DNA from: an uncultured bacterium
GTDB taxonomy: Bacteria > Desulfobacterota_D > UBA1144 > Nemesobacterales > UBA2774
Length of the DNA stretch: 64,000 nt
Assembly: GCA_963705505.1 (NCBI GenBank)
Contig: CAVPJU010000006.1
Span: 256,001 to 320,000, forward strand
Direction of reading: 5' to 3'
Shown here: one piece after another, positions 56,121-61,596 of the stretch
Numbering within the stretch: the stretch's first letter is position 1
How the letters are laid out: the number at the start of each line of letters is the position of its first letter
Program-made: the position numbers and the translations under genes
Notes under the pieces: model-generated
The model's input: only the letters and a program-made list of their open reading frames with translations
What the model was told of the DNA's origin: nothing
Databases searched by the model: none

Positions 56121-56889
56121 ATGGGTGAGCGCTCACTCAATCTATGCACGGGATTTAAATTGAAACGGATAATCACGAACGGCGACCAAAATTTCTCGAT
56201 ATTCGATTCCGCCTATAGGCCGTTTTTTATACTGGCGACGGTGTCATCGTTGTTTTATATGACCTTATGGACGGCTTTCTATACCTTCAAGCTCAGGCTG
56301 AATTTTGAAAATATATCCCCGACTATGTGGCATGCGCACGAGATGCTGTTCGGTTACGCAATCGTAGTAATAGCAGGTTTTTTGTTAACGATTGAGAAGT
56401 ACAGGTTCGGGACCTGATAAGCAAAAAATCCGCGCTCATTATATTGATAATTCTTTGGATACTCGCAAGGGTGTCTATCTCGGCGGGCCGAATGGATGTA
56501 CACCCATATTGATCAGAACGGTCGCTTATGCCTGGATCGCGGTCGGGTTCGGCCTCAAGTTCTTGTCCCTTTATTTCAACATCCCGGAGCTGCCGGCGCT
56601 CCACAGCTTCACGTACGGCGGGATCGGTATCATGACGGTCGGATTCATGTCCCGCGTGACTCTGGGGCATACCGGCAGGAACGTATTCGCGCCGCCGAAG
56701 ATAGTGTTCTGGATTTTTGCCGTTTTACTCGCGGGAGCTATCGTAAGAGTATTCTTCCCGTTAATAGACAGCGGCAATTACCCGCTCTGGATCGCTATAT
56801 CACAAATATTATGGATTGTATCGTTCCTTATTTTTGCGATCGTATTCCTGCCGATGTTATGGAAACCCTCTGTAGAGAAAAGGGCATGA
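56121..56889 (+). pseudogene. nnrS: NnrS family gene, frameshifted and internally deleted
   Basis: N-part YRPFF...WHAHEMLFG, short LWILAR segment in another frame, C-part MSRVTLGHTGR; much shorter than a full NnrS. Confidence 0.8.
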
Positions 56890-56948: not shown

Positions 56949-57898
56949 TTACGGAAGCTTATCACGCTCGAGCGCCTGACGGTCCCACTTTGCGAGATTC
57001 GCAGCCGCCTCATAGGTGCTCTGGAGGAAATCGAGGAGCATAGCGTCAGGCCGACCGGCCTTTCTGACTTCGTCGTACGGAAGGAGGAACTCTCCGAGAT
57101 CGGTGTTGTAGAATAGCGCCTGACGGCTTCACAGGGGCGTCCTTAAACCCCTCGGGCGCGGGGTATGCATAGGCGTAGAACACCGGATAGGGCACAGGGC
57201 CGCCGCCCGGCCAGAACCCGCAGCTGCTCACCTCGTGAGAGTAGGCTTCCCGCGCGACGACGTCGGGAAGGTGCGGCACGCCGCCCGGATGCGGAGGAGC
57301 GGTCCGCCCGGAAAACCGCGTCACTGCCATGTCGAAGCTACCCCAGAAGAAATGCACCGGGCTGCACTTGCCGATGAACCGCGCGCGGAACTCCTTGAAC
57401 ACGCGGTCTGTCTGGACGAGGATACGCCAGAAACGGTTGGCGTAGTCAGGGTCGTAAGAAGCGTGCTGCTCGTCTTTCTCGAACGGAACAGGGTCGGCGA
57501 CCTCATTCGGAAGTGTGTGGATGTGAATGTCCAGACCGAGCTCCCGGAGTTTAGCCATGACCTCCCTGTAGAAATCCGCGACCGAGCGCGGACTTGAGGT
57601 CGATAAGCCGAACATCACCATCGCTCGTCTCGATCACAAGCTTATGGTCTATAAAATCGAAATCGATCTGGAAGGTCCTTTCACCGTAAGGAATGGGGGA
57701 AGTCGTTAACCCCCGGCAGGTGACATACAGTGTCACGTGCCATGAATGGTTGATCCAGGGGGTCAGAGCGAACCTGACCTTGCCTACGATCTGAGTCCAC
57801 ATGTGGAGGGTCGCATATGTGTCCTTCCACTCCTCAAGCGGCAGACTCGGCCATGCTTCCCTTTTGTCGCTGCTCTTTGAACGGTCCGAAGACGACAT
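56949..57898 (-). CDS. DUF5996 family protein, two 1-nt frameshifts near 57593 and 57114
   Basis: TLHMWTQIVGKVR, NHSWHVTLYV, SPVHFFWGSFD, EAYSHE, EFLLPYD, FLQSTYEAAA. Confidence 0.8.
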
Positions 57899-58068: not shown

Positions 58069-58503
58069 CTAATCGCCTAACTTCTTAACAGGGGCTTCGA
58101 CTTTGATATCCCCCGCGTTTTCGAACTTAAGATCGAGCTCGATCTTATCCTTATCCGTGACCGGTTCTTTTAAGTCCATCAGCATGACGTGAGTCCCGCC
58201 CGGCTTGAGCTCGACGCTTTTCCCGGCGGGGATAACGAGCGCATCGACCATATTCATATTGGCGACACCCTCATTGTCGATGACGGTCTGATGGATCATG
58301 GTGCTTCCTGAAATGCTGCTCGTAACGCTGAGCAGCTTGTCGTCTGCATTCCCTTCATTCGTAATAGTCATGTAAGCAGCGGCGACCGGCGACGAAGGCG
58401 GGACCTTCCCTATCCATGCATCCTTCACCACGATCTTGCTCTGGCCGAAGGACAATTGAGTCAGCACAAATAAAACCGCGAGCGAAAACAGATACTTTTT
58501 CAT
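58069..58503 (-). CDS. Periplasmic copper chaperone PCu(A)C
   Basis: Signal peptide, AAYMTITN, H...M...LKPGGTHVML copper motif. Confidence 0.92.
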   Translation of the reverse strand: MKKYLFSLAVLFVLTQLSFGQSKIVVKDAWIGKVPPSSPVAAAYMTITNEGNADDKLLSVTSSISGSTMIHQTVIDNEGVANMNMVDALVIPAGKSVELKPGGTHVMLMDLKEPVTDKDKIELDLKFENAGDIKVEAPVKKLGD

Positions 58504-58600: not shown

Positions 58601-59594
58601 TCATTTCCCGACGCTATGCACGTGCTCATGCCCGGCGTGAGAAAGATGTTTCGCCGGCATATTGTGAAGAAGAAGCGCCGTGCATACCAGAAGCGCTGCG
58701 ATAAGAACCGCCTCCGCCCCGACCTTACGTATGAGCCCGGTAACCGTCGCGCCGTTCTCCTCCCGGGAGCCCGTGGACCGGGTAATTCGCGGAATGCTGA
58801 TGTAGCGGTTCGATGCGGCGAGTATAACGAGCACAGCGAGGAGCATTATCTTAAGTAGAATGATTTTACCGTAAGCGGTCTCCCGGAGGGCGCGGAAACT
58901 CCCTACCTCGGTCCATCCGTTGTATGCGGCGGTTATTACAATAGCGAAGAGCGCAACGCCCGCAAGACCGGAGAACCGGACGGCAATGTCCGCGATATAC
59001 TTACGGCGCTCTCCCGGGAGCCGGAATATCGACGGGAAAACGGCCAGGGAAAGCGTAATGAGACCTCCTCCCCATATTGACGCAGCCATCAGATGAAGCC
59101 AATCCGAAATCTCAGGCAGGCTGAAATCCCCCGCGTCTGCCGCATGCCCCGAAGCGCTGCGGGTGGCCGCTATCACCGCTGCAGCAATAAACATGCAAAT
59201 CGAATACCGGCGTGCGTACAGGTCCCTCCCGCCGACCAGCCACGCTGCGCATAATACAGGCGACGGCGGCTATGCGTATCAGCCACACCCGACCATAATG
59301 GGTTTTGAACAGGACCGTCGGCACAAGAGATAAACCGGCCGCCAAAGGGAGTCCGCTCATCTCGGCTGTACGTGTGAGGAGAAGAACGGAGCTGCTCAAA
59401 ACAAGCATTGCAGCCGTGAGGCCGATCAGCTTCCACACATTAGCCAGGAGCAGCCCCTCGTCCCGCTTGTCCGAGATGCTGCCGGTCACATGCAGTACCC
59501 ATATTCGGCAGGAAAGAGCACCGATGCAGGCGGTCAGGGCCAATAGGTCGAATAATGTCGGGGCGCTGTGTCCGAATTTATCCAGGATCATCAT
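58601..59594 (-). CDS. copD: CopD family inner-membrane copper protein, frameshift near 59252
   Basis: THYGRVW, SASGHA, DWLHLMAASIWGGGL, TAYGKIILLK; His-rich tail KHLSHAGHEHVH. Confidence 0.85.
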
Positions 59595-59600
59595 ATCCTC

Positions 59601-59969
59601 TTATTTTACCGTGAACGTATAGCTCCCCTCGGTACGATGACCGTCCCTCGAGACAGCGGTCCAGATAACCCTGTAGATACCCGCGGGAAGCGGAGGCAGG
59701 TCCACCTCAAGCAGCTTCGCATCGGATTTGTCAACGTGCCCTTCTCCCTTATCCACCCTCTGCGAATCGGCATTCTCGACCCGAATCTCGCTGAATTCGT
59801 CCTCTAGCTCACTGTCGAACCAGACGCGGGCCTGCGGCGGCGAAGCGCTTATGGTCGATCCCACCCTGGGGTCCGAATGATCGGGGAATGCATGCCCCCA
59901 GGCCGCCATCGTCTGAGCGCCCGCGTATATGAGACCCAACAGTATAAAGACGTTTAATACTTGCCTCAT
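59601..59969 (-). CDS. copC: CopC periplasmic copper-binding protein
   Basis: Signal peptide then HAFPDHSDP; YRVIWTAVSRDGHRTEG. Confidence 0.92.
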   Translation of the reverse strand: MRQVLNVFILLGLIYAGAQTMAAWGHAFPDHSDPRVGSTISASPPQARVWFDSELEDEFSEIRVENADSQRVDKGEGHVDKSDAKLLEVDLPPLPAGIYRVIWTAVSRDGHRTEGSYTFTVK

Positions 59970-59982
59970 AGTTCTTGATCTC

Positions 59983-60883
59983 CTATCTGAAAATAGGCCT
60001 CCCGAGACTATCCGGGAAGAGGTCATCGATGAAGACGTGGAAAAGGGCGAGAACCCCGACCCCGTCGCCTGAGTTGTCGTTGATCGGAATTTGGGCCTCG
60101 ATCCCGAGCTGAATATACTTACCGAACCATATAATACCGGGGTTGACGAAGCCCGTCGGTTTCACCGCCGCTGCCCTGATTCAAAGCCGTTTCAAACGGG
60201 AACTCCACGACAAGAATCATCCTGTTAAGCGGCACCGGGAGTCCAACATCCTTCACGAAAGCCTCAAGATACTGAAAACTGTATTGGATGGTAAACCCGT
60301 ATTCAAATACGTCCGGCTCTTCGCTATCGATTGTGAAGGCAGGGCCGATTACGCCGGTAATAGCAAGCGGCCTCAGGAACCTCAGAGTCTCAGGCAGGTC
60401 TCCGAACCCTTTCCCGAAGAATAAGCCGGGAGCGAGTGTCGTGAAATCATCGGCGTCAACGGAGCTATCCCCGGTGTGGCCGATCTCGGCATCCACGCCA
60501 ATCGACATGATAGCCTCGTGTGGGGCGTTCGTAAGGAACTGGTACTTAAGACCCACGCCGAGGTTCGAAAATCCGTGCTGGGTTTTTTCTCCCTTGGCTT
60601 TTATAAACTCGTACGAATCTCCGACCGCTAAACCGAAGTGCGGCGTAATGCGTTTGGAATACTCGACCGACAGCTCGTAATTCTGTGCGTCCTCCTCGTC
60701 CTTCAGATAACCGAAGAGAAACGAAAACTCGTCCGAGACGAACGGGTCTTCAACTGATAATGTGGTGGGGAAAAAACGCTTGCCAGCATATCCGTGCGAC
60801 CAGGACGACGCCGGCATTGAAACTAAAATCAGAACAAAAGCGATTCCGCATAATAGCTGTAATTTATATTTAATATACAACAT
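59983..60883 (-). CDS. Putative outer-membrane beta-barrel protein of the copper operon, frameshift near 60158
   Basis: Signal peptide then HGYAGKRFFPTTL; amphipathic strands; C-terminal part continues in ORF 59983-60165. Confidence 0.75.
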
Positions 60884-60973
60884 AGGACTCCTCCTCTATG
60901 CAATAGATTGCAGCCGCGAAAGAGTCTGGCTTTCCGCAGCTGAATTCTTTTTATATGAAATGAAAAAGTGAGG

Positions 60974-61360
60974 TTAAGAAATTAAGAAAGGAGGGGAACG
61001 GTTGGTGTTGCTTAAGGTAACTAACTCGTATTTTACTTCCCGCTCATAAATACGCAGGAAATTTATATCGGCATTGTATGAAAAAAGATTATTTCCATTA
61101 AGACCGACCAGCTGATGATTATTATTGGAAATAGCGGTCTGATTCAAACTGAATAAAGATTGTTCTCCGGGGTTGCTGCCCCTGCTGGAAAGGCTCGAAC
61201 TGCTCATGCCCTTCAAAACTATAATCGTCCCCATACAGGGCGTGTTTGTAAACTCAATCTTTCCGGATTCGTCATGGGAAACGGAAAAGAGTATAAAAAA
61301 TAGAGCTATTACGGGAACAAGCAGGTATCTGAGGTGTGAATATTCGATATGAGCAGCCAT
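60974..61360 (-). CDS. Candidate leader/arrest peptide with N-terminal TM and C-terminal RSPP motif
   Basis: LLVPVIALFFILFSV hydrophobic segment, Ser/Asn-rich spacer, ends NRSPPFLIS, 90 nt upstream of the cop operon. Confidence 0.65.
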   Translation of the reverse strand: MAAHIEYSHLRYLLVPVIALFFILFSVSHDESGKIEFTNTPCMGTIIVLKGMSSSSLSSRGSNPGEQSLFSLNQTAISNNNHQLVGLNGNNLFSYNADINFLRIYEREVKYELVTLSNTNRSPPFLIS

Positions 61361-61596
61361 TAATAAGGTTTAAATTACCATGATTTTGAATGGGTTGTAA
61401 AGGGGGGATGAGACCTCCAAACCCCAACCCGTTTGAATATCTTAGCGAATTACTACCCGCAATCAGTATTTGTTCCTGCCTCATTTCGAATCCCAGTGTT
61501 ATATGATCAAGCGCGGATTTGGAGTAAAGAAGGTTATACATTATTAAGGCAATAACCAGTAATGAATGACAGATATGTGAATTGTTATCTCGCGGA

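Follow-up and report, generated by a model that had tools for sequence, protein, structure and literature searches.

Among the described leaders that resemble the one studied here, CruR (Bp2923, DUF2946/PF11162) of Bordetella pertussis heads a copper-import operon and has its metal motif 45 residues ahead of the Arg (PMC9426467), and it was reported to arrest at RAPP in vitro (PMC12992588). The CruR variant C90S/C93S retained expression and lost control, and the semi-conserved upstream Cys51 was dispensable (PMC9426467). CutF of Rhodobacter capsulatus is described as requiring a CxxxC, stalling with copper and inducing a detoxifying oxidase (PMC9973294; bioRxiv 10.1101/2025.02.05.636593), and in the model proposed for it the force arises from disulfides formed by upstream cysteines (bioRxiv 10.1101/2025.02.05.636593). 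In ApdA, ApdP, the RQH family and the Streptomyces peptides SLIV_16130/SLIV_18480, an RxPP core follows a lineage-specific upstream segment (PMC10987492, PMC12992588). RSPP was found to support arrest partly in ApdA/ApdP and is a weaker staller than RAPP; the Arg is reported to be irreplaceable in ApcA, ApdA and ApdP, and RAPP uORFs are enriched ahead of DsbA/thioredoxin genes (PMC12992588). The SecM/RQH design combines an export signal, RxPP and an SD-hiding stem, and RAPP-like motifs from ordinary proteins mostly do not stall (PMC10987492). Metal leaders without CxxC are already published, namely the His-only CutF-like clusters 14 and 17 (PMC9973294) and the RAPP leaders SLIV_16130/SLIV_18480, which have dispersed Cys/His and stand ahead of metal genes (PMC12992588). 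The initial annotation of the present locus, which proposed an RxPP-type copper leader lacking CxxC, was right about the lack but overstated its novelty.

The window, i.e. the whole stretch of 64,000 nucleotides analyzed here, contains on its minus strand a 128-aa ORF (60974-61360) that ends with R121-S-P-P124-F-L-I-S-stop, and its stop codon lies 90 nt ahead of the ATG (60883) of an outer-membrane barrel gene. The ORF, its hydrophobic N-terminus, the RSPP codons (61000-60989) and the 90-nt spacer were all found where the initial annotation had placed them. The features of the leader are as follows.

60974..61360, minus strand: leader ORF, 128 aa, with coding selection by dN/dS
61280..61324, minus strand: hydrophobic export signal or anchor, about residues 13-27, best 15-residue hydropathy 2.97
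61235..61240, minus strand: Pro41-Cys42, 78 residues ahead of the Arg, invariant in 24 of 24 aligned sequences
61133..61147, minus strand: L72-x-Q74-x-A76, about 46 residues ahead of the Arg, conserved in the alignment
60989..61000, minus strand: R-S-P-P, predicted arrest motif, as RSPP in 14, KSPP in 12 and RAPP in 9 of 35 family proteins

The leader contains a single Cys (C42), and His29 sits after the hydrophobic segment. The protein gave no match in Pfam, NCBIfam or Rfam. Its chain is predicted to be unstructured, as the AlphaFold model (pLDDT 40) shows the N-terminal hydrophobic segment as sole helix and nothing further that is informative. The dN/dS values of the window's leader against 12 relatives (12 pairs) were 0.25-0.43, and a second set (10 pairs) gave 0.21-0.34, placing the KSPP clade described below also under purifying selection; the frameshifted leader of genome G009 was left out of the dN/dS analysis and the tree, and two partial leaders were left out of the tree alone. 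As judged from this coding selection, the ORF is a real gene. Furthermore, the window's genome was scanned for stop-to-stop frames of at least 60 aa ending in R[ASGT]PP, which yielded 35 frames, and the only three with an additional hydrophobic N-terminal segment all look like leaders. Hence, the leader is not explained by chance. A second RSPP leader of the window's genome (L185:417-743, plus strand; G000:C6:364216-364542) is His-rich with CxxC and lies 215 nt upstream of a porin-like gene and a ZnuA/ABC transporter. A third one (L186:395-829, plus strand; G000:C10:418394-418828) is His-rich without any Cys past the hydrophobic segment and is followed by a small secreted protein with weak Pfam hints only. 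By the lipobox rule, a lipoprotein reading of the window's leader was rejected on inspection, since position -1 is Pro and the Cys is separated from the hydrophobic segment by 14 residues, most of them polar.

A first search detected 12 relatives and a profile search 34, and the scan of 1.84 billion cluster representatives returned 5 real clusters, with the repeat P0038 dropped as noise. In the phylum scan, 14 of 120 genomes match the leader at E<1e-30 (8/10 of the window's genus, 5/7 of a second and 1/1 of a third genus); 8 of 22 genomes (E>=0.003, short or with stops) were left out as noise. For two relatives the source gives the name Ca. Dadabacteria, and 68 candidate stretches in viral contigs contained no leader. 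Within the reach of these searches, the leader family is small and occurs in one bacterial family, in three of its genera. The loci are closely related and do not represent independent samples. Conservation of RxPP, on which the initial annotation had made its reading depend, was found in part: Pro-Pro is invariant in 35/35 proteins and ends 3-4 residues ahead of the stop, and the preceding basic residue is Arg in 23 (RSPP in 14, RAPP in 9) but Lys in the other 12, all with KSPP. CxxC occurs in 0/35 family proteins, and none has two Cys 1-3 residues apart. The distance from Pro-Cys to the motif is 78 residues in 30 and 77 in 2 of the 32 proteins covering this region, and Pro-Cys and spacing are also kept in the remote P0036 (hand count); Cys and spacing are maintained despite an overall identity of 23-35%. 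Conservation is also high in the tunnel-proximal segment (K110, L113, T119). The one Pro-Cys is the only invariant possible ligand in the family, and no His or Met column of the alignment is conserved. As ligand or His-brace, the His that follows the hydrophobic segment, offered in the initial annotation as part of a sensor, had to be given up: among the 24 covering sequences this residue is His in 6 and Arg in 11, and 2/35 family proteins are free of any His. One Cys without conserved His or Met is, by its residues, not a copper site.

Compared with the known systems, the RSPP leader resembles CruR as the small first gene of a likely copper-import operon with a hydrophobic segment that may be an export signal, an RxPP 3-4 residues from the end and a tightly kept Cys-to-Arg spacing; by analogy its stall would mean downstream ON, and a C-rich tract suggests that Rho may act, too. 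Unlike CruR, it has neither CxxC nor a DUF2946 match, its spacing is 78 instead of 45, the family uses RSPP and KSPP besides RAPP, the predicted anti-SD is situated within the Pro codons, and a small FapF-like barrel with CopC, CopD and PCuAC stands in place of CruR's TonB transporter. By position, Cys42 is the counterpart of CruR Cys51. The DUF2946 search suggested for the homologues came back empty, with 0/17 family members matching the PF11162 model at E<=10. At the distance of the DUF2946 metal motif (45 +/- 2 before the Arg), where DUF2946/CruR-type leaders have their CxxC, the family shows the L-x-Q-x-A element (about 46) and its Cys lies at 77-78, but a RAPP-like motif is present at the C-terminus (RSPP in the window's leader, RAPP in 9/35). 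With CutF the leader shares a size below 150 aa (128 aa), a PP within the last 15 residues (123-124), a short spacer to a same-strand gene within 1000 nt (90 nt) and, as predicted, a stall that melts the stem hiding the next SD; moreover, PCuAC is a common neighbour in the CutF-like class. Where the class has a Sec/SPI signal peptide, the leader shows a hydrophobic helix that may be a signal or an anchor. In contrast to CutF, it offers one invariant Cys and no conserved His or Met where the class has a Cys- and/or His-based metal site, and it heads an uptake-type operon, hence the polarity is likely opposite. Among the named CutF-like clusters the CzcI clusters were nearest by language-model features (0.93), which is a lead only, and the lineage names are absent from three small supplement files (8,054 characters) of PMC9973294 that do not include the protein lists. 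The RAPP-type peptides combine a localization signal with an SD-masking stem, and some are reported to head metal genes; their R-[AGS]-P-P core near the end of a small uORF is found in the RSPP leader and not in the KSPP clade, and the SD-hiding stem lies, by predicted structure, within reach of the stalled ribosome. The metal-linked ones among those described differ in having two or more Cys or His clusters. The leaders at all 19 loci head barrels or a glutaredoxin, and none heads secA, secDF or yidC, the genes expected behind a Sec/YidC monitor. By analogy, the RSPP leader would work like CruR and CutF, yet it lies outside Pfam DUF2946. The open-access literature searched contained neither a lone-Cys leader nor a KxPP arrest motif or glutaredoxin target, and the open-access publications listed for Dadabacteria and copper showed nothing on leaders.

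A promoter is predicted directly ahead of the leader.

61396..61401, minus strand: predicted -35 hexamer of the leader promoter, conserved across 17 aligned loci
61372..61380, minus strand: predicted extended -10 (TG-n-hexamer), 11 nt ahead of the ATG, 16 loci

The 16 loci for the -10 are those whose aligned stretch extends to the start codon. The -35 scores below a generic promoter-scan threshold; together with the extended -10, about 10-12 nt ahead of the ATG, it is conserved, and the sequence further upstream diverges. Since the -10 lies 11 nt before the ATG and an SD is absent, the transcript is predicted to be near-leaderless. Between the two hexamers, a short A-rich element (61383-61391) is kept in all three genera. 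Judged by the CueR operator consensus, a CueR-type operator was rejected, because relatives do not share the ACC...GGT symmetry seen in the window and the spacer measures 18 nt (by eye).

The RNA between leader motif and barrel start contains four features.

60987..60994, minus strand: anti-SD from the Pro-Pro-Phe codons, CCUCCUUU, from the predicted fold
60890..60897, minus strand: SD of the barrel gene, AGAGGAGG, from the sequence
60911..60942, minus strand: inner hairpin of the spacer, no U-run, with two-sided changes in 6/9 pairs over 19 loci
60938..60997, minus strand: C-rich, G-poor, rut-like tract, 16 C and 2 G in 60 nt

The pairing of the Pro codons with the next SD, already noticed in the initial annotation, is borne out by the 8-bp helix CCUCCUUU:AGAGGAGG, which is part of the MFE structure of 60870-61020 and of the centroid structure, too (z -1.94; an equally good fold was reached by 6 of 200 shuffles). 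When the last 33 nt of the ORF were folded together with spacer and start, the SD paired with them at P>=0.9 at 17/19 loci vs 2/51 control gene pairs, i.e. same-strand pairs of the own genome with crude gene calls. In longer folding context the motif codons keep P>=0.9 at 11/14 RxPP loci, and the helix is lost at three (L089, L092, L097), of which L089 is without it in every context. The codon pair CCT-CCT is used in 13/14 RxPP loci vs 3.6% of 500 Pro-Pro dicodons genome-wide, and among 16 synonymous choices the native pair is the strongest sequesterer of the SD; other synonymous sites are equally invariant (P41 CCC 12/12, T119 ACC 13/14). When a ribosome footprint was imposed on the Pro codons, the computed SD-opening cost in the window dropped from 8.3 to 3.6 kcal/mol and the mean over the 14 RxPP loci from 8.9 to 4.2 kcal/mol, whatever the footprint length, and about 4 kcal/mol of SD structure persists after the modelled stall. 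The proposal that a stall would free the SD is hence supported by modelling, with an opening cost that is halved. Covariation of the anti-SD helix, which had been put forward as a check, is small, with two-sided change in 2/8 pairs, and not demonstrable because the SD barely varies; such changes are found in the inner hairpin instead. This hairpin was rejected as intrinsic terminator, as it lacks a U-run and was not called as one. A C-G excess of the size seen in the rut-like tract occurs at 0.8% of the 1824 ORF ends in the genome, and part of this C-richness stems from the S-P-P codons; a rho gene is present in the window's genome. The leader-to-target spacer is 84-91 nt long at 19/19 loci. 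Several unrelated leaders ahead of this barrel are likewise predicted to have a Pro-codon anti-SD, which is, therefore, not peculiar to the RSPP family.

Behind the leader follow the genes listed here.

59983..60883, minus strand: outer-membrane barrel with FapF/COG4313-like fold and N-terminal His after the signal, from the fold of an intact orthologue
59601..59969, minus strand: copC (PF04234, 72 bits)
58601..59594, minus strand: copD (PF05425 and NF033808)
58069..58503, minus strand: PCuAC copper chaperone (PF04314, 131 bits), the only copy found in the genome

The copper-operon neighbours named in the initial annotation could be confirmed, as CopC, CopD and PCuAC all score above the Pfam cut-offs and the intact barrel orthologue (pLDDT 94.5) has FapF and the COG4313 channel as best structural matches. 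One extra base each interrupts the barrel gene near 60157 and copD near 59259. Both are absent in related contigs and in genome G007; hence, the breaks are likely assembly errors, and true pseudogenes were rejected, since the extra bases are confined to the window's assembly. The DUF5996 (57046-57898) and NnrS (56121-56889) genes are split in the assembly as well, and DUF5996 is intact in relatives, consistent with indel errors. The window's genome encodes three COX1-family genes and therefore needs copper. The leader operon is likely a copper uptake operon.

The target gene behind the leader is of three kinds. One is a His-rich barrel, in most cases with PCuAC next. The second is the present barrel with copC, copD and PCuAC, seen in the window's genome (G000) and in G007, and its start is visible on two short metagenome contigs. 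The third, in five genomes, is a glutaredoxin paralogue (PF00462). The promoter, the leader and the spacer are retained across these different targets. On the leader tree the present barrel requires two changes, and one change is allowed in 0% of the bootstrap trees, with three rows only carrying this result, which suggests cassette exchange. Both alternating barrel families have a His directly after the signal (window 59983-60883; L091:850-1719). At the 6 loci checked in three other genera, none of the His-rich barrels had an RxPP leader. At most of 80 loci, copC-copD come next after the present barrel. In other phyla, CxxC leaders commonly head the barrel-copC-copD cassette; among 25 other leaders of this barrel scanned, 5 score over the DUF2946 cut-off and 5 more match weakly. 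In the Verrucomicrobia rows (L034-L079), leaders before the present barrel end with SPPVPPPR or APPAPPPR and have a CxxC at about 58-61, and the four of them scanned gave no DUF2946 match. Another CxxC-less leader type heading this barrel (L002, L003, L060, L080) has an HxxHH behind its hydrophobic segment, and its one Cys lies 47-49 residues ahead of RSPP/RAPP. Leaders of order-level relatives (L004, L005, L086) have a Cys at 76-77 plus 4-5 Cys clustered at 41-49. Homology of the RSPP family to these Cys-cluster leaders was not detected beyond the tail (hhalign probability 1.9%); hence, the correspondence in position between Cys42 and their upstream Cys is regarded as analogy. The leaders of the KSPP sister clade (L103-L106, L109) are situated between leuS and the glutaredoxin paralogue, which has a CIYC site; the housekeeping glutaredoxin of these genomes is found elsewhere, before gltX. 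The clade retains Pro-Cys at 78, and its anti-SD is rebuilt 12 nt downstream at 5/5 loci, where the SD pairs with the last codons and the stop and opens only under a footprint of at least 15 nt.

From these observations we consider a stall-coupled SD switch very probable. The predicted sigma70-type promoter, conserved 11 nt upstream, would give rise to a near-leaderless mRNA. The export signal would engage Sec and the ribosome would stall with Pro123/Pro124 in the P/A sites, as in ApdA, ApdP and CruR. According to the computed helix and energetics, its footprint would break the anti-SD:SD helix such that the barrel gene can be translated, and by covering the rut-like tract the stalled ribosome may keep Rho off. 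Release linked to copper via the lone Cys42 is a tentative proposal to which we give slightly less than an even chance. Cys42, 78 residues from the Arg, would be periplasmic. One thiol cannot chelate copper alone, therefore a partner must supply the other ligands, most simply perhaps a periplasmic chaperone loaded with copper, for which CopC or PCuAC of the operon would qualify, and capture of Cys42 by this partner might pull the chain free of the stall. With the single Cys retained, signal sensing would thus have to differ from that of the known copper leaders. The polarity is likely that of CruR, i.e. stalled when copper is short and released when it is present, since the targets are uptake/delivery genes and three COX1-family genes are encoded. 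However, it counts against the copper reading that five genomes have the leader ahead of a cytoplasmic glutaredoxin and not of a copper gene, and that CruR Cys51, the positional counterpart, was dispensable (PMC9426467). Against arrest at the motif stand the weaker stalling by RSPP and the Lys of 12/35 members, given the Arg reported as irreplaceable in ApcA, ApdA and ApdP (PMC12992588). An extended version appears rather unlikely, though worth stating: the leader would be a lone-thiol ruler in which a periplasmic partner takes hold of the Cys, 78 residues away from the stall site, through a copper bridge or mixed disulfide and pulls the ribosome free, and a portable module rewired from copper uptake to glutaredoxin in a KSPP-stalling clade with relocated anti-SD.

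Chains can be captured by mixed disulfides during export. The same stall switch could read the periplasmic thiol-disulfide state, if Cys42 formed a mixed disulfide with a DsbA-type oxidase that anchors and pulls the chain, and copper would act only indirectly. The KSPP clade, which keeps Pro-Cys at 78 ahead of a glutaredoxin paralogue, fits such a sensor, and so do the Thioredoxin_4 and VKOR family genes in the window's genome, the upstream-Cys disulfides invoked in the CutF model (bioRxiv 10.1101/2025.02.05.636593) and the RAPP uORFs reported ahead of DsbA/thioredoxin genes (PMC12992588). But the glutaredoxin is cytoplasmic, and at 13/14 RxPP loci the target is a barrel followed by copper genes or the contig end instead of a redox gene, and we regard this explanation as unlikely. 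Slightly less likely still is a secretion monitor like SecM/ApdP, in which the stall is released by nothing but export force, slow Sec transport induces the operon and the Cys is structural. A putative export signal, RxPP and a predicted SD-hiding stem correspond to the SecM/RQH design (PMC10987492), all products of the copper operon are exported, and the well-conserved residues K110, L113 and T119 are tunnel-proximal. Nevertheless, no sec or yidC gene is among the targets seen, and the control of a cytoplasmic glutaredoxin as well as the invariance and fixed spacing of the Cys, which sits in a chain without predicted structure (pLDDT 40), would stay unexplained.

The invariant Cys at fixed spacing bears also on the idea of a degenerate copper leader that lost its CxxC and acts as constitutive translational coupler or enhancer without sensing. 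The leaders of the order-level relatives, with Cys at 76-77 and a cluster at 41-49 ahead of the same barrel, look as if such a cluster had been lost, the C90S/C93S variant of CruR kept expression without control (PMC9426467), and the His-rich barrel manages without RxPP leader at 6/6 loci in three other genera. However, these Cys-cluster leaders show no detectable homology beyond the tail (hhalign probability 1.9%), and Cys and spacing are kept at 23-35% overall identity, such that we rate this possibility as low as the secretion monitor. Finally, the gene could encode an ordinary small exported protein in which RSPP tail and SD pairing are incidental, given that RAPP-like motifs from ordinary proteins mostly do not stall (PMC10987492) and any SD is complemented by Pro codons. 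This appears very improbable, as motif position, codon choice and spacer length (84-91 nt, 19/19) are conserved and the anti-SD is relocated in the KSPP clade.

To the known systems this locus adds the conserved near-leaderless promoter, the rut-like tract, the swapped targets and a KSPP glutaredoxin clade with the anti-SD moved by 12 nt. If Cys42 does nothing, the leader is one more lineage-specific CutF-like leader. How an extra-ribosomal ligand generates or abolishes the force controlling CruR-/CutF-type stalls is stated as open (PMC9426467; PMC12992588; bioRxiv 10.1101/2025.02.05.636593). As it offers only one residue as candidate ligand, keeps its spacing fixed and lacks a predicted fold, the RSPP leader would represent a minimal test case for folding-driven versus partner-driven release. 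Moreover, the KSPP clade bears on the claim that the Arg is irreplaceable, and KSPP and RxPP leaders form a natural pair for comparing EF-P-resistant and EF-P-sensitive stalls.
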